A stretch of 64,000 bases of DNA from a virus: positions 1-64,000 of IMG/VR virus record IMGVR_UViG_3300025168_013179. One strand, written 5' to 3'. The translations under genes and the position numbers were made by a program. The notes below the pieces were generated by a model, which saw nothing but the letters and a program-made list of their open reading frames with translations, made no database searches and had not been told where the DNA came from. This document shows positions 15,623-59,926 of this stretch, piece after piece. Each line of letters begins with the position of its first letter. Position 1 is the stretch's first letter.

Positions 15623-15778
15623 TTAATGTTTAGCTTTAACTGCTGCTATAAATTGACTAAAGATAGAGTTAATAGTAGATTTCTCACTATCAGAAGCTAC
15701 TCTTTTGGTTCCTGAGTATGCTGCTTCTTTGTTTTCTTTTGATCTATATGTTAGCCCAGCTATATCTGATTTTTGCAT
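15623..15778 (-). CDS. Small protein (51 aa), last gene of Hint operon
   Basis: MQKSDIAGLTYRSKENKEAAYSGTKRVASDSEKSTINSIFSQFIAAVKAKH; ATG 3 nt after upstream stop; not in ORF track. Confidence 0.65.
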   Translation of the reverse strand: MQKSDIAGLTYRSKENKEAAYSGTKRVASDSEKSTINSIFSQFIAAVKAKH

Positions 15779-15781
15779 AAT

Positions 15782-16159
15782 TTACTCTTCGTTTCTATTA
15801 ATAATCGAATCTCCATGAGCTCCTATTCCTTCTACATAGAAATGATTAGAAGTTTTAATATTATATAGTTTGTCTACTAATACATACTTACCTGTTATAT
15901 GCACATTATCTTCAGATTTTACCCAAGCTCCCTCCAACCATAAAGGATGGTCTCCAGTTACTTTAAAAACACCATAATCATACATTAGTATAGTATCGTT
16001 AATCTCATATACATGCTTTTCTAGTACTACTGAACCATGCTTTCTATCGTGAGATAAGAGTTTGTCACCTACTTTAACATCTTCTATATTCTTATGTTCC
16101 CTGAAGCCTAATGCAACTTTAGCTCCTGACATAAAACAGTTATAATTTTTAGTTTTCAT
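15782..16159 (-). CDS. Stand-alone Hint (hedgehog/intein-like) domain protein
   Basis: Block A 'CFMSGAKV', 'KNIEDVKVGD', block B 'VTGDHPLW', block F/G 'LYNIKTSNHFYVEGIGAHG'. Confidence 0.85.
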   Translation of the reverse strand: MKTKNYNCFMSGAKVALGFREHKNIEDVKVGDKLLSHDRKHGSVVLEKHVYEINDTILMYDYGVFKVTGDHPLWLEGAWVKSEDNVHITGKYVLVDKLYNIKTSNHFYVEGIGAHGDSIINRNEE

Positions 16160-16160
16160 A

Positions 16161-17951
16161 TTATATTAAATTTATGTTTCTTTTTTGTTTATTTCCTATT
16201 ATTGTAGTATACCCTTCTATATCTTTAACAACATTAAGTTCATTATGAGTAGTACCTGATGCAGGAATACCTTCTAGAATAAAATTGTCTTTAGTTTTTA
16301 AATTGTATAAACTTTTGACATACATAACTTTAGACTCCCAACCTAACTGCTCAGCATTACTCCATTCTCCATTAATAAATAACGGATGAGAATTGGTAAC
16401 TGTAATTTTACCGTTAGTATACATTTCAGTCATTTGATTAACATTATATATGTAAGTATCTTCTACTAAGCAATTCGTTCCGTTTTTTGTTAATACGTTG
16501 TCTCCTACTACGATATCCTGTATCTCTTTAAAACTTCCATCAGCCATAGTAACTCTACTTCCTGGCATAAAACATTTTCCTTTGTTATTGTGAAAAGCAA
16601 AGAAGAAAGGAGTATTTCCAGTAACAATATTATCAGTAGGTTCCAAGTTAACTGAGTTAAATGATCCTGTAGGAGTACTAAGGACTATCATTTTGTTTTC
16701 TTCTATATTTACTATGTTATTATTAATATCTATTAAGTAAATATCATCTTCTTCAATTTCACTGATAGCTCTAAATTTTATTTTATCTGAACCTGAGTCA
16801 TAAGATAGTACTGAAGTAGTAGGTCCTAAGTAGAACTTTTCATCAACACCTGACATTTTTAAACCGTAAATTATTCCTTCTGAAGCAGGATAAGAATCTA
16901 AATTAGAAACTACTGATGAACCGGTTATTTTTGATCCAGCAGGCCATACACTTCCAGTAATTTCGTATGAACTAAAAACAGTAGCATCATCTGTATCAGG
17001 CATACCTTCTACATGAAAAGATTTTAATACTTTTCCTATTGCTACATCTTCAAAAGCTAAATCTGCTCCAGAAGAAGATATGAAATGCTCTGTGCTGAAT
17101 AATCCTTCTCTTCTTTTAACTGACTTTACTATGCTTGTTGAAAATTCATAATGATGTTTAATACTAAGATCAGTATTAGAAGACATAGCTGTTATATCTA
17201 CCTGACTAGTTGTAGGAAGAGTAAATTTAGCATAACATATGCTTGTGCCTAAATTTAAAATATCTAAGTCAGATCCATAAGCTATAGAATAGTTTCTATA
17301 ACTCCAAGCTACGTTATCTGTAATAGATTCATCACTGATTTCATATGAGGATAGATATGCACTTCCGGTTAAACCTGATTTAGCAGTACTCCAGTTAGAT
17401 ACTTTCTTAAAACTGACATCGCTAGGCCATATTTTATTTTTAATTACTGCGTTAGGAACATTTTCAGAATAAGCATCTGTATTAATAGTATCGTAAGTTG
17501 TAGATCCAGATACTGCATAGAAAGGCACAATAGAACCCGAATGTCCAGCATCATGCATTAACTGTAATGGAGCAAAGGAATCTGCACAGTAAGTAGAATC
17601 TATTATAGCATTTTCGTTATAAGCTAATCTTAAAATAAATCTTTCAGAAGAATCGTCTATAGCATCAGGATAAATGTCGTTTAATCCAACCATAGACTGA
17701 CTAATAGAAACATCGGGTAACTGAACAGTCATTTTATCTACAAGATTACTTATAGATAGAATATGTAGTTCAGGTTTATAAACAAGAGTTAGATTAGTAT
17801 AAGACCCTGAAATAGCATCTACAAGAGGTTGCCAATTAAATTCATTGTCTAATATATCATCGTAAATAACTGTATCGGTATTGGTTTCTATTAACCTAAT
17901 GCTATTATCTCTAGCTTTGACATAGTCACTAGATATTAAAGTTCCTTTCAT
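16161..17951 (-). CDS. Circularly permuted ATP-grasp-like domain fused to two tandem Hint domains
   Basis: N-term 'SSDYV...IRLIETNTD', 'PNAVIK'; degenerate Hint ~aa283-455 ending 'FHN'; Hint from Cys460 'CFMPGSRVTMADG...TNSHPLF...LYNLKT'. Confidence 0.7.
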   Translation of the reverse strand: MKGTLISSDYVKARDNSIRLIETNTDTVIYDDILDNEFNWQPLVDAISGSYTNLTLVYKPELHILSISNLVDKMTVQLPDVSISQSMVGLNDIYPDAIDDSSERFILRLAYNENAIIDSTYCADSFAPLQLMHDAGHSGSIVPFYAVSGSTTYDTINTDAYSENVPNAVIKNKIWPSDVSFKKVSNWSTAKSGLTGSAYLSSYEISDESITDNVAWSYRNYSIAYGSDLDILNLGTSICYAKFTLPTTSQVDITAMSSNTDLSIKHHYEFSTSIVKSVKRREGLFSTEHFISSSGADLAFEDVAIGKVLKSFHVEGMPDTDDATVFSSYEITGSVWPAGSKITGSSVVSNLDSYPASEGIIYGLKMSGVDEKFYLGPTTSVLSYDSGSDKIKFRAISEIEEDDIYLIDINNNIVNIEENKMIVLSTPTGSFNSVNLEPTDNIVTGNTPFFFAFHNNKGKCFMPGSRVTMADGSFKEIQDIVVGDNVLTKNGTNCLVEDTYIYNVNQMTEMYTNGKITVTNSHPLFINGEWSNAEQLGWESKVMYVKSLYNLKTKDNFILEGIPASGTTHNELNVVKDIEGYTTIIGNKQKRNINLI

Positions 17952-43089: not shown

Positions 43090-43547
43090 TGCTTATAGAA
43101 ATCTATATATTCCAATGCTGTCATAAAATCATTTTGAGGATATTTCTTTAAATTTGCCATATCCATTTTATGAGTTTGATCTTTAGGAAACTGCTTAATT
43201 TTTCTATCATCTTCTGTAATAGGAACTGCTTTAACAGCAGACCAACCCCATTCTTCTTTATTGCTACCATCCAAAAATACCATACCTTTTTCTGGTATGC
43301 TAATTGTAGCTGGTGCCCATACTCTTTTATCTTTATCGGTATGAAGTAGGTCTTTATATAACTCAGGAGAGGTTGCTAATAAATCATTTACTACTTTAGA
43401 ACCTTCTGTCATAAGGGTCGATGTAGTAAACCCACTACCAAAACATAACCATGTTTTTATTTGGTTACCTTCTTGTTCAAATGATTGTTCATAACAAGCA
43501 TTACTACCGAAAGGACCTTCTACTAATTGATCTTTATTTAATTTCAT
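43086..43547 (-). CDS. Conserved hypothetical protein
   Basis: Coupled ORF in glycan cluster. Confidence 0.55.
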   Translation of the reverse strand: MKLNKDQLVEGPFGSNACYEQSFEQEGNQIKTWLCFGSGFTTSTLMTEGSKVVNDLLATSPELYKDLLHTDKDKRVWAPATISIPEKGMVFLDGSNKEEWGWSAVKAVPITEDDRKIKQFPKDQTHKMDMANLKKYPQNDFMTALEYIDFYKQ

Positions 43548-44860
43548 ACTTTTTTAAGTTTAGGAAGTTTAATAGCAGGTGGTGTTGATGCACCTGGTTT
43601 ATTTAATTTAGGAAGTGAAAGCTTTGGAAGAGTAAGCTCTACTTGTTGAGCAAATTCAGGTATGGTACTTTCAAATATCTTTTTTAATTTAAAGACCATG
43701 TTATCGAAACTGAAATTTGTTTTATTTTGATGTCTTAGTTTTTTAGCATAAGTAATATATTTCTTATAATGTTTAAATATATTCTTATATGCTTTTCCAA
43801 CTTCAATAGAGTCAGCTTTAAACCAAGCAGCTTGAGATAACAATACATTTTTTTGAACTGATGATGGGTGAAGTTGTTCTAACTTACCATTAAGAAGAGT
43901 AGCATATTGTTTATCTAAAAAATCTAAATGACCAGACCATCCTGAAGCTATAATTGGTTTACCTATCAAGCTAAATTCAAGCAATGGTCTACCAAAACCT
44001 TCTCCTCTTGTAAGCGATACCATAGCTTTAATCTTAGGGTGATTGTATATATCGTTAATTTCACTATCAGTTAAGTCTCCATGTATCACATATACGTTAG
44101 GTAATTTACCTTTAACAGTATTCTTAATAGATTGGATTTTATTTAACAGAGTAGACTTATCCATTAATGAAGTATTAGCATGAGAAGTTTTTAAAACTAA
44201 AGCTGGTTGGTTGGTCTTATTTTTAAATGTTTCTAAGAAAGACTTAATAGTAAAGCCTATATCTTTTCTATCATGACCATACTCTCCTTTTAACCAATGT
44301 CCAACAACTAAAAAACAAAACGATTCTTTAATCATAGACAAATCAAAACTTGAATTCTTAGGTAAGTACTTATCTAAGTCTGCTCCTTCTAATAATACTT
44401 CAATTGGTTTATTAACCTGTACCTTAGAAGTAATTTGACCAGTTTTATTATCTTTTACTTCCCAAGCTGTTTTTAAAAATACATCTTTACTGTGCTCAGA
44501 AGATGTCAATGTTAGATTCATTCTATTAACTCCTTGAATCCAACTTTGATCTACTAAAGTTGCTTCTATACCTGCTGTTACTCCTATACTATACTCACCT
44601 ACGGGTTGAAATTCATTAGGAACTGTTATCTGTATCCATATTTCAGGTTTCTTATCTACCTGAGGAACTATTAAAGAGGATAGTTCACCCTCGTTATGAT
44701 CGTTCAAATAGCCGAATCTAGTATTACCCCATCGTTGAGATAGTAATTTTACATTATACTTATCTAATTTTAGAACTGCTTTTATAAAATCCCTTGATCT
44801 TGCTCCGTAGCCTGAATAAGTATCTACTGGAGAGCTTATAAACATTGTTGGTTTATTCAT
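43544..44860 (-). CDS. Glycosyltransferase family 4 (GT-B)
   Basis: 'SGYG..SR', 'RKD', 'GEGFGRPLLE', 'SGHLDF'. Confidence 0.9.
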   Translation of the reverse strand: MNKPTMFISSPVDTYSGYGARSRDFIKAVLKLDKYNVKLLSQRWGNTRFGYLNDHNEGELSSLIVPQVDKKPEIWIQITVPNEFQPVGEYSIGVTAGIEATLVDQSWIQGVNRMNLTLTSSEHSKDVFLKTAWEVKDNKTGQITSKVQVNKPIEVLLEGADLDKYLPKNSSFDLSMIKESFCFLVVGHWLKGEYGHDRKDIGFTIKSFLETFKNKTNQPALVLKTSHANTSLMDKSTLLNKIQSIKNTVKGKLPNVYVIHGDLTDSEINDIYNHPKIKAMVSLTRGEGFGRPLLEFSLIGKPIIASGWSGHLDFLDKQYATLLNGKLEQLHPSSVQKNVLLSQAAWFKADSIEVGKAYKNIFKHYKKYITYAKKLRHQNKTNFSFDNMVFKLKKIFESTIPEFAQQVELTLPKLSLPKLNKPGASTPPAIKLPKLKKV

Positions 44861-44861
44861 A

Positions 44862-46298
44862 TTAATATCCTGTTAATTTATGAGTTACTTTAAGCGATGG
44901 TGCTTTATCAACATGAAAGACTTCGTGTCTAGGTCTAGGTTTAAAAGTTGCTAAAGTTTCATCTATACTATTAATCATATTTTTACACATATGGTCTGCT
45001 GTCATTTGAGCTTCGTCAGACTGAGCCCATAAACTACCAGCTATCCCTCTTCTATCTCTTTCTTCTTTTGGAATATCATATACCTTTTTTATAGCAGCAG
45101 CTATATCCTCAGGGTTAGACCTATCGTCGTATATATAAGGAGTCATAGGAGACCCTGCTAGAGAAATATTAGAAGGGAAAACAGGTACTGCCCATTCGCC
45201 ACATTTTTTATAAGTACCTCTATGATTAGAAGGAAAGTCAGCATCGAAGTCTATCCAATCACCATTTTCATCTTCAAATCTTAATTGATCTTGCATTCCT
45301 CCTGTTGCTGCTCCTATTATCATCGTACCAGACATCATTGATTCTGTTAAAGATAATCCCCATCCCTCATTAGATGAGATTAAAGTAGTAACATCACACA
45401 TATTATACATAAAGTTCATTTGAGCAGATGATATTTTTGCAGTAGAAAAATAAACATTACCTTCTGGGTACACAGCTTCTTTTACTGCTTTTAAATCTGT
45501 ACCGTGATTATTAGAAACTTCTGTATGCATTATTAATCCACATCTCTTTGCTTTTTCTTCTCCTATCATATCACAGAAGAATTTAAATGATAAGATAATG
45601 TCACCTGGTCTCTTTCTGTGAATATTTCTTGAGTTAAAATAAACTAAGAAATCTACATCTGGATTATTAATAGTCTTTTGTTTAAACTTTACAAGTTCTG
45701 GGTATAGGGGATTTTCTTTTACTATTGGAAAGAAATGCTTATTATTAATTCCATGAGGAACATAATTAATAATTTTATCTATAGCTTCATCACCTAGTAC
45801 TAATTTATTTATATTAACAGTCTGTTTAGATATACCCATTAAACAGTCTACAGAGTTATAATAATCTCTATTATATACTGGAGCAGGATAGTCATCCCAA
45901 ATATTTAACCATACGATTGGAATTTTATTTCTTATTTCTCTTTCAATTTCAAATAACCAAATCCAGTATCTAGGGTCAGTAAAAATAAAAATAGCATCTG
46001 GTTTTTCTTTTTCTAGTAAGCTTCTAATTAAGGTACTATTTCCATAACCTTCAAAAGGCATAATATGCACTTTTGCATCAGTTATACCTGCATTTTTATT
46101 TACGTCATCAGAAATGTCTACAAGTTTTCCATTCTCTGGATGTTTAAGAGCAGCTCCAACTTGGAACCAATTGTATTTATGCGCTGATCCGACCACTAAT
46201 TCCCTAGACATTGTTGCTATCCCAGAGTGCATTCTTAAATCATCACTAAGTAAAAGTATTTTCTTTCTTTTACTCTTTTCAATATAACCTTCTACCAT
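44862..46298 (-). CDS. Glycosyltransferase family 4 (GT-B)
   Basis: 'VPHGI', 'RN..RK', 'NEGWGLSLTE', 'TGGMQDQ'. Confidence 0.9.
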   Translation of the reverse strand: MVEGYIEKSKRKKILLLSDDLRMHSGIATMSRELVVGSAHKYNWFQVGAALKHPENGKLVDISDDVNKNAGITDAKVHIMPFEGYGNSTLIRSLLEKEKPDAIFIFTDPRYWIWLFEIEREIRNKIPIVWLNIWDDYPAPVYNRDYYNSVDCLMGISKQTVNINKLVLGDEAIDKIINYVPHGINNKHFFPIVKENPLYPELVKFKQKTINNPDVDFLVYFNSRNIHRKRPGDIILSFKFFCDMIGEEKAKRCGLIMHTEVSNNHGTDLKAVKEAVYPEGNVYFSTAKISSAQMNFMYNMCDVTTLISSNEGWGLSLTESMMSGTMIIGAATGGMQDQLRFEDENGDWIDFDADFPSNHRGTYKKCGEWAVPVFPSNISLAGSPMTPYIYDDRSNPEDIAAAIKKVYDIPKEERDRRGIAGSLWAQSDEAQMTADHMCKNMINSIDETLATFKPRPRHEVFHVDKAPSLKVTHKLTGY

Positions 46299-58282: not shown

Positions 58283-59926
58283 TTATCCTAATAGCATACT
58301 AGGATCGATACCAGCTGGTTTATCGTCTTTATCTTCAGGGTTTTTAGTTACTACTGCCTCAGTAATAAGTAAGGTTCCTGCCACAGATGCAGCATTTTCT
58401 AATGCCAATCTGGTTACTTTAGTTGGGTCTATAATACCTGCTTCAAACATATTAACTATTTCTTTGATTCTAGGATTATATCCTTCCCATTCGTTACCGT
58501 TATCTTTAATCTCTGCTTCTATATCGTGTATGTCTTCTATCTCTATACCTGCGTTTGTAAGTATCTTTTCAAAAGGTTTCTCACAAGCATTTATAACAAT
58601 ATCATAACCGGTAGAAATATGTTCATTGCTATCCTCTGGAATATTATGTATTATTTGCATTGCTGCGTTTAGTAGAGCAATTCCTCCCCCGGGTAGAATA
58701 CCTTCTTCCAATGCTGCTTTTGTAGCATGTAAAGCATCTTCGACTCTATCCTTTTTCTCTTTCATCTCTATCTCTGTATGACCTCCTACATGAACGATAG
58801 CTACTCCTCCAATGAACTTGGCTAATCTATTTTGTAGATTCTCTTTTTCAAATGGTGATGTAGATTCATCTATTTGAGTTTTTATCTCTTCTACCTTCTG
58901 TGTAATTTTATCTTCTTCTCCTTTAGCGTCTATAATAGTAGTAAATTCTTTAGAAATAGTAGCTTTATTAGCTTTACCCAACCATTTAGTATCAAATTTA
59001 TCTAACCTCATACCTTTCTCAGAAGAAACAACTTGTCCACCAGTTAAAATAGCTATATCCTCCATGATAGCTTTTTTTCTATCACCGAATTCTGGTGCTT
59101 TAACTGCAGCACATGCTAGGATACCTCTCATTTTATTTACTACTAATGTAGATAGTGCTTCTCCATCTATATCGTCAGCAATAATTAATAATGACTTATT
59201 TTGTTGAGAAACAGCCTCCAAGATAGGAAGTAACTCTTTGACCTGATTTAGTCTTTTATCGACTATAAGAACGAAAGGTTCTTTCAGTACTGCTGTCATA
59301 GAGTTATTATCAGTAACAAAATATGGAGACTTATAACCTCTGTCGAACTGCATTCCTTCAACCGTCTCTAAGTACGTTTCTCCGGTTTTCGACTCTTCTA
59401 TCGTAACTACTCCATCTCTTCCTACCTTGTCCATGGCTGTTGAAATTAATTCACCAACTTCTGTGTCATTATTAGCAGATATTGTAGCAATTTGTTTTAA
59501 TTGCGCCTCATCTGTAATTTCTTTTGAATACCCTTCAAGGTACTCTACTACTTTTTTAGTAGCTTCATCAATACCTTTTTTGATTTCTACTGCGTTTGAT
59601 CCTGCTTCCAGTCTCTCTAAACCTTCTGCTAATATAGATTGTGCTAATAATGTAGAGGTAGTAGTACCATCCCCGGCATAATCAGCTGTTTTAATAGCAG
59701 CTTGTTTTACAATTTGAGCTCCTAAGTTTTGTATTTTATCTTCTAAAACAATTGATTTAGCTACTGTAACTCCATCTTTTGTAGATATAGGATTACCCAT
59801 ATCTTGTTCTATAATAACATTACGTCCAGAAGGACCTAAAGTTGCAGTAACTGCATCAGCTAGTTTATTTACCCCGTTAGATAATTCTATCCTTGCAGGG
59901 TTTGCAAATGTAATTTTTTTACTCAT
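58283..59926 (-). CDS. groL: Chaperonin GroEL
   Basis: 'TLGP.GRNV', 'TKDGVTVAK', 'GDGTTT', 'GMQFDRGY.SPYF', 'GIIDP.KV.R.AL'. Confidence 0.98.
   Translation of the reverse strand: MSKKITFANPARIELSNGVNKLADAVTATLGPSGRNVIIEQDMGNPISTKDGVTVAKSIVLEDKIQNLGAQIVKQAAIKTADYAGDGTTTSTLLAQSILAEGLERLEAGSNAVEIKKGIDEATKKVVEYLEGYSKEITDEAQLKQIATISANNDTEVGELISTAMDKVGRDGVVTIEESKTGETYLETVEGMQFDRGYKSPYFVTDNNSMTAVLKEPFVLIVDKRLNQVKELLPILEAVSQQNKSLLIIADDIDGEALSTLVVNKMRGILACAAVKAPEFGDRKKAIMEDIAILTGGQVVSSEKGMRLDKFDTKWLGKANKATISKEFTTIIDAKGEEDKITQKVEEIKTQIDESTSPFEKENLQNRLAKFIGGVAIVHVGGHTEIEMKEKKDRVEDALHATKAALEEGILPGGGIALLNAAMQIIHNIPEDSNEHISTGYDIVINACEKPFEKILTNAGIEIEDIHDIEAEIKDNGNEWEGYNPRIKEIVNMFEAGIIDPTKVTRLALENAASVAGTLLITEAVVTKNPEDKDDKPAGIDPSMLLG

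Follow-up and report, generated by a model that had tools for sequence, protein, structure and literature searches.

HINT domains are familiar as components of larger proteins, namely inteins, Hedgehog proteins, BILs and pretoxin modules. In type B BIL domains (Amitai et al. 2003; summarised in PMC4031507), the HINT fold comes with Cys1 and a TxxH motif, and an intein-like block G is absent. In HINT domains without the block G His-Asn, such as type B BILs and Hedgehog, cleavage or transfer is uncoupled from splicing (PMC4031507, PMC7664689). The Vint domain is eukaryotic and is found behind VWA and Vwaint domains (PMC2362128). In BIL2 of the Tetrahymena BUBL1 polyubiquitin-like locus, the HINT thioester hands the N-extein to a lysine, and does so without ATP (PMC8616854).

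Here we describe a phage gene that encodes what is modelled as a complete Hint, and nearly nothing else. It is maintained by selection as a gene of its own and its catalytic residues are intact, with almost nothing to cut, which raises the question of what purpose the chemistry could serve without a passenger. A literature phrase search for free-standing or stand-alone Hint or intein genes returned nothing relevant. The phage is common in seawater, and in its relatives three or four Hints are strung together on a single protein; tandem-Hint proteins in marine metagenomes are largely unstudied, and this system makes them tractable.

A free-standing Hint gene in a marine phage

The window analysed here is a stretch of 64,000 nucleotides, belonging to an IMG/VR record of 97.8 kb that is estimated to be 59% complete. 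The genes of the record include those for a baseplate wedge protein, GroEL, a DNA polymerase and glycosyltransferases, and we therefore assign it to a large marine myophage. The Hint gene and its immediate surroundings, in window coordinates, are as follows.

16161-17951, minus strand: upstream gene, 596 aa, made up of an N-domain, a degenerate Hint-1, the linker NKGK, Hint-2 and a 30-residue tail
16157-16163, minus strand: TAA-T-ATG junction, which couples the Hint gene translationally to the 596-aa gene; identical in the window and in loci L003 and L004
15782-16159, minus strand: free-standing HINT-fold gene, 125 aa, identified from the list of open reading frames, its orthologues in L003 and L004, dN/dS and the structural model
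15623-15778, minus strand: downstream gene, 51 codons, with the junction TAA-ATT-ATG; a p51-like gene also lies directly 3' of the multi-Hint gene in distant relatives

The order of genes encoding 596, 125, 51, 62 and 121 aa is common to the window, to the TARA scaffold L003 and to a second metagenome locus, L004; in these two the Hint orthologues occupy the same position and are 125 and 132 aa long. The orthologue in L004 (595-993) has a seven-residue insertion, EEGSALT, directly past block B; this loop tolerates length change. Public homologues of the same size number four (P0001-P0004, 78-99% identity), one of which, P0004, is encoded on 14 contigs.

Across the window, L003 and L004, the pairwise dN/dS of the Hint gene was 0.12-0.18 at dS 0.56-0.86, similar to the values for flanking genes. 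The segment 15782-16159 has thus been shown to be a real gene under purifying selection, which we read as separately translated. The free-Hint clade is known from five near-identical copies (78-99% identity), and because 86% of the columns are invariant among them, the fact that they all keep the three catalytic residues weighs little by itself.

The preliminary description of this DNA had named one way in which its proposal could fail, namely that the Hint might be a frameshifted piece split off a longer gene. The frame of the Hint gene is open for just two codons 5' of its ATG (the open frame has 127 codons), the window, L003 and L004 contigs have no slippery site in common, and the orthologues of the upstream protein (P0026) terminate at the same place as the 596-aa protein of the window. 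Frameshift fusion is very unlikely for these three reasons, and the TAATATG sequence is conserved. Just before the upstream stop, two contigs have the codon ATA and the third has ATT; given the closed frame and the lack of a common slippery site, we rejected a programmed frameshift linking the two genes. A k-mer search for a fused or longer homologue of the 125-aa Hint also found none, which by the tool's own note is weak evidence.

Two other candidate features of the 5' end were discarded as well. Translation from Met10 was ruled out, as Cys8-Phe9 fit the block A of the family across a deep divergence, and MKTKNYN-C was ruled out as a lipoprotein or signal peptide, having no hydrophobic stretch. 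In a scan for promoters and terminators, hits were no more numerous than in shuffled sequence.

The same DNA was found in metagenomes from many marine or seawater studies. Contigs from RNA libraries, at 99% identity or better, overlie parts of the gene as well as the junction at 16044-16194, which shows presence and not transcription; stretches of the region that have no such contigs carry no meaning. A tblastn search with the 125-aa protein gave no match in 50,697 phage records, blastn of the region returned just a 90-nt match to Flavobacterium phages (outside the Hint gene), and scans of viral contigs, both with single proteins and with alignment A2, found nothing. Elsewhere in the window, a phage GroEL is encoded at 58283-59926, and genes of 200-570 codons each, all on the minus strand, follow one another over 24685-46298, with at least two glycosyltransferase-like proteins (43544-44860, 44862-46298; phrog_2170).

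Fold and active site

Pfam searches with the 125-aa protein returned Hint-type matches exclusively, all below the gathering threshold (Hint 23.9 bits, Vint 23.1 and Hom_end_hint 21.3), and phmmer against the PDB sequences found nothing relevant. The assignment of the HINT fold is independent of these sub-threshold matches. An AlphaFold2 model, for which the input was a 22-row alignment of the family, reached a pLDDT of 87.3 and a pTM of 0.81, and was poor at residues 1-3 and 120-125 alone. Structural searches with this model (Foldseek, VIA-align) gave as best match the Tetrahymena Vint domain 8r2c (Z 13.9, rmsd 2.6, 119 residues), then BIL2 (6y75, Z 13.3), the C. thermocellum BIL 2lwy (13.0), many inteins at about 12 and Hedgehog (1at0, Z 11.6); the HINT matches span 103-119 residues. 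As modelled, the free protein is a complete HINT fold extending from residue 8 to residue 116, rather than the partial fold with a partner fragment that marks a split intein.

In the superpositions, residue 8 of the model falls on residue 1 of inteins and on Cys258 of Hedgehog, and Cys8 therefore occupies the position of the nucleophile. Residue 116 falls on the last residue of inteins (145 in MchDnaB-1, 440 in Mtu RecA and 125 in gp41-1), so that His115-Gly116 stand in place of the His-Asn of inteins. The protein thus runs from its leader MKTKNYN straight into Cys8, continues through V-T68-G-D-H71-P, and ends its fold with E-G-I-G-A-H115-G116, beyond which there is a nine-residue tail. The corresponding features are listed here.

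16139-16159, minus strand: leader MKTKNYN, seven codons, the entire N-extein; invariant in the window, P0001-P0004, L003 and L004
16136-16138, minus strand: codon TGT of Cys8, the block A nucleophile by structural alignment; at least 90% conserved in alignment A3
15947-15958, minus strand: block B, Thr68-Gly-Asp-His71; His71 invariant in 22 of 22 rows of A3, Thr68 invariant in alignment A5
15812-15832, minus strand: end of the fold, E-G-I-G-A-His115-Gly116; residue 116 aligns with the last intein residue, and conservation of Gly116 across the family is at least 90%
15785-15811, minus strand: tail DSIINRNEE, nine residues, near-invariant in the clade (last residue E or D; alignment A1)

These results bear out what had been seen in the letters alone. 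Cys8 does open block A, the block B His (in TGDHP) is intact, and block G does end in AHG rather than HN, with Gly116 at the position of the terminal Asn. The overall picture of a free-standing Hint with a seven-residue N-extein and no terminal Asn was likewise confirmed, by the reading frame, the model and the structural alignment.

Cys8-Phe9, Thr68, His71 and Pro72 are retained despite an identity of about 36% to the nearest paralogues and a long branch, which argues for the first ATG as the start of translation and for selection on the chemistry. Other positions have changed. The Asp of intein block F is Asn across the whole phage Hint family (in the motif LYN). Gone from the free-Hint clade are the 'M.DG' motif of block A and the tail of 25-30 residues that the C-terminal Hints of the family carry; in place of that tail is the nine-residue one, predicted to be disordered (pLDDT 38 in the last block). 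His115 is particular to the clade, the family having Ser or Thr at that position. To judge from these substitutions and losses (block F Asn, M.DG and tail), the activity of the Hint could be reduced or differently tuned.

A class 1 intein would have His-Asn followed by Cys, Ser or Thr at +1, and the sequence here is His115-Gly116-Asp117. Nor is there a protein into which an intein could have been inserted, the N-extein being seven residues long and the tail nine, with no longer homologue found. A mobile intein, which the preliminary description had dismissed, can indeed be set aside, as host protein, endonuclease and +1 nucleophile are all absent. Its suggestion that the domain performs N-cleavage or transfer only is supported by the model, in which the nucleophile and block B are intact and a terminal Asn is not present.

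The Hint family and the origin of the free gene

An exhaustive phmmer search collected 495 relatives at E ≤ 0.001, a family match therefore far beyond chance. Most of the top 150 hits contain several Hint domains, and many have 2-7 Hints in tandem. Arrays of 4-7 Hints in direct tandem, a few residues apart, are common among the relatives (P0005, P0006, P0013, P0014, P0018, P0025 and others); a literature search found no description of such arrays. Similarity over the full length, including LYN.KT and EGI.A.G, is confined to Hints located at the C-termini of phage proteins, whose lengths run from 180 to more than 1100 residues.

The resemblance to the second Hint of the upstream protein, which had been noticed in the motif LYN.KT...F..EGI, is real: the free Hint and Hint-2 (aa 460-566) share 36% identity over 109 residues, this motif included, with an E value of 2e-21. 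In a maximum-likelihood tree, however, the free-standing clade (support 97/92) falls outside the main clade of capping Hints (96/92), which holds the Hint of the neighbour. The free Hint is therefore an old paralogue and not a fresh local duplicate.

A multi-Hint module

The upstream 596-aa protein contains two Hints behind an N-domain of about 280 residues.

16587-17105, minus strand: Hint-1 of the 596-aa protein (approximately aa 283-455), degenerate; it has no Cys1 and ends in His-Asn
16254-16574, minus strand: Hint-2 of the 596-aa protein (aa 460-566); Pfam Vint, 37.1 bits over aa 460-551 (cut-off 27)

In an hhalign comparison, the Hint-1 region matched the C-type Hint with 92% probability over block A. 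The N-domain, whose invariant residues include E22, N24, T25, D26, T27, R108, Y111, E113, D118 and S119, had no match in Pfam, the PDB sequences or the Atlas, and the AlphaFold model of the 596-aa protein was poor (pLDDT 52, about 30 for the N-domain). Homologues of this protein with 744-906 aa (P0012, P0017, P0024, P0009 and P0127) have three or four Hints per chain, in the order N-domain, degenerate Hint without Cys1 but with His-Asn, one or two ordinary His-Asn Hints, and a terminal capping Hint.

Distant phage relatives (L010, L011, L014 and L015) were reached through a neighbouring reductase-like gene. In L014 (754 aa) and L011 (744 aa), three Hints lie in one chain, a p51-like gene follows directly, and a free Hint is absent; in L010 and L015 the entire module is absent. 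The conserved core is therefore the multi-Hint protein together with the p51-like protein. In this comparison, the free Hint is a lineage-specific gene inserted between the two, where the large protein has one Hint fewer. In the 754-aa homologue of L014 (469-2733), the terminal Hint belongs to the His-Asn type, and just one Lys separates it from the stop codon, leaving a C-extein of one residue.

The 51-codon product of the window is 37% identical to L014:2748-2891 over 41 aa (pairwise E 4e-7) and more weakly related to L011:10470-10607 (E 0.002). Genes of this kind, 45-51 codons long and found in three diverged lineages, encode a conserved C-terminal helix ending in F..(F/V)KA(K/E)H and are tightly coupled to the preceding stop. 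The p51-like protein may be a partner or a substrate of the module. A prediction of the complex between the Hint and the 51-aa protein scored 0.01, a value that counts neither for nor against binding. Near the module in L004 (1722-2267) and L011 (10617-11159) there is also a gene of about 180 codons, alike in the two loci and absent from the window.

Proposed reaction

The reading that we favour, and that we consider a little better than evenly balanced, is that the gene encodes a catalytically intact, non-splicing Hint that acts as a separate subunit of the multi-Hint module and sheds a minimal leader of seven residues. In this scheme Cys8, aided by Thr68 and His71 of block B, would attack the Asn7-Cys8 bond in an N-S acyl shift, giving a thioester. 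Since Gly cannot cyclise and there is no C-extein nucleophile, this step is the only one left (PMC4031507, PMC7664689); with Gly116 at the place of the Asn, neither splicing nor C-terminal cleavage would be expected, and the model leaves N-terminal cleavage or transfer at Asn7/Cys8 as the sole predicted outcome. The thioester would then be resolved by water or by an outside nucleophile, and the products would be the heptapeptide MKTKNYN and a 118-residue Hint starting with cysteine.

Most likely, the leader is the smallest possible N-extein, a mere start peptide and not a cargo, and the product under selection would be the Hint itself. The Hint is probably an extra, separately encoded Hint of the module formed with the p51-like protein, as relatives bear an equal number of Hints in one chain; the equal count per locus in three lineages may nevertheless be a coincidence. 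We infer the cleavage and its rate, as well as the resolution and the fate of the thioester, and likewise the tie of the Hint to the neighbouring genes, which gene order and coupling suggest.

Should the protein cleave itself as proposed, it would be a very small natural thioester generator (125 residues) without an Asn-driven side reaction, and might find use in protein ligation.

Alternative readings

The alternative that survives best, although we think it unlikely, is a chemically silent, domesticated Hint serving as a binding, scaffold or assembly subunit, for example as a partner of the Hints in the upstream protein. The residues Cys8, Thr68 and His71 would then persist for structural reasons or as relics. 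Such a role would be in keeping with purifying selection over the whole fold and with the ways in which the clade differs from its family, i.e., the loss of M.DG, the shorter tail and His115 in place of Ser or Thr. However, nucleophile and block B have outlasted a divergence in the course of which some two thirds of the residues changed, and a leader that ends right at Cys1 is exactly what an active precursor requires.

The preliminary description had seen in the leader a short basic peptide cargo, and in the two genes a modular cassette of peptide donors made by duplication. On such an account, the Hint would activate its leader by turning it into a thioester and then pass it on to a target as a tag or signal, with NKGK as a second cargo. 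The chemistry would be available, at least in the model (Cys1 and TxxH present, Asn absent), and no copy shows an amino-acid change in the leader, the single nucleotide difference being synonymous (AAC/AAT in codon 7). There are also precedents: the Tetrahymena BIL2 conjugates its N-terminal ubiquitin-like domain to lysines independently of ATP (PMC8616854), Hedgehog is transferred to cholesterol (PMC7664689), and Hog genes exist whose N-terminal domains have just 15-25 residues (PMC2362128).

Nonetheless, the homologues, when examined for variable N-exteins, offered no support for either idea. The leader is identical in all five known copies, no second or differing leader occurs in any homologue found, and cassette-like variation is thus missing. 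A profile search of short proteins yielded no further genuine stand-alone member; the other short hits (P0049, P0106, P0154, P0155 and P0157) all start at a conserved internal Met on contigs of about 1 kb, and we read them for that reason as truncated gene calls. The segments between Hints in the multi-Hint relatives vary from 0 to 6 residues and are unconserved (AF, AP, KK, R, NLTPE, TKFGS, RWGIFG, none), so that by their sequences they look like spacers and not like cargo. The tree, as noted, points to an old paralogue. Even the invariance of the leader is just marginally unusual, since we estimate that about 1.4 non-synonymous changes would be expected per pair in these seven codons against the zero observed. 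In addition, one peptide per single-turnover protein of 125 residues would be costly, and no acceptor is known. A peptide donor is, all considered, quite improbable.

Very unlikely, too, is a relay in trans, whereby the Hint, through the N-terminal Cys exposed by loss of its leader or through its intact thioester, would react with the p51 protein or with the thioester that the upstream protein forms at Lys459-Cys460, so as to join or process products of the module, a task that the internal 'mid' Hint of the relatives would perform in cis. The loci do have three Hints each, either on one chain (L014, L011, P0012 and P0017) or as two plus one (window, L003 and L004), and the free Hint sits exactly between the multi-Hint and p51-like genes, with tight stop/start junctions. 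Yet the tree does not place the free Hint near the mid Hints, whose sequences end in His-Asn.

Finally, that the gene is an artefact or in decay (either a fragment that frameshift or splitting has detached from the upstream gene, or a duplicate that is being lost) has a negligible probability: its reading frame does start 1 nt past the stop of a gene ending in a related Hint, but the frame is closed two codons upstream, a slippery site shared by the three contigs is absent, the junction is conserved, dN/dS is 0.12-0.18, the upstream orthologues share the same end residue and a fused form was not found in the search for longer proteins.

Comparison with known systems

By analogy, a non-splicing, catalytically intact Hint such as we favour comes close to the type B BILs, with which it shares the HINT fold, the N-terminal Cys, the TxxH motif and the lack of an intein-like block G, and for which cleavage instead of splicing would be expected. 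The type B domains, however, are embedded in bacterial proteins that are large and variable; the free Hint has a gene to itself and an N-extein of seven residues. The Pfam family Hint_2 did not match the 125-aa protein, and gave merely 15 bits with the neighbouring Hint.

In structure, the closest match is Vint (PF14623; Tetrahymena 8r2c). Hint-2 (37.1 bits) and the clade members P0002 and P0003 (precomputed PF14623 hits) reach this Pfam family and no other; the 125-aa protein itself scores 23.1 bits, below the cut-off of 27. The architecture is another matter, as the VWA-Vwaint-Vint arrangement is replaced here by a viral gene without a VWA domain.

Hedgehog/Hog proteins resemble the proposed reaction in that they perform the N-S acyl shift only, with an outside nucleophile resolving the thioester, and Cys8 superposes on their Cys258. 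The nematode 'short-hog' or 'Hog only' genes, with N-terminal parts of 15-25 residues (PMC2362128), provide a precedent for a very short leader. Hog proteins differ in having a sterol- or adduct-recognition region behind the Hint, where the free Hint has a nine-residue tail that is predicted to be disordered; moreover, the free Hint is viral and not secreted, and the sequence similarity is weak.

BIL2 of the Tetrahymena BUBL1 locus (6y75, 6tmm) has a close fold (Z 13.3) but differs in its terminal Asn and in the ubiquitin-like domains on both sides. Hedgehog cholesterolysis and the dispensing of ubiquitin by BUBL would be the systems to compare with a broader idea, which we regard as a long shot: that free-standing Hints are recurring, single-shot and ATP-independent acyl donors of phages, attaching a short, ribosomally made peptide to a molecule of the phage or its host, or joining proteins of the module via a thioester, in this case with the multi-Hint and p51-like proteins.

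Nearest in sequence are the capping Hints of phages (P0038, P0040, P0041, P0052, P0071, P0089 and P0119; L005-L009), which belong to the same family and likewise have no Asn. These end larger proteins and carry a tail of 15-30 residues; the free Hint shares their sequence similarity, but it does not stand at the end of a larger protein, and it forms a separate deep branch, outside their main group, as a gene of its own.
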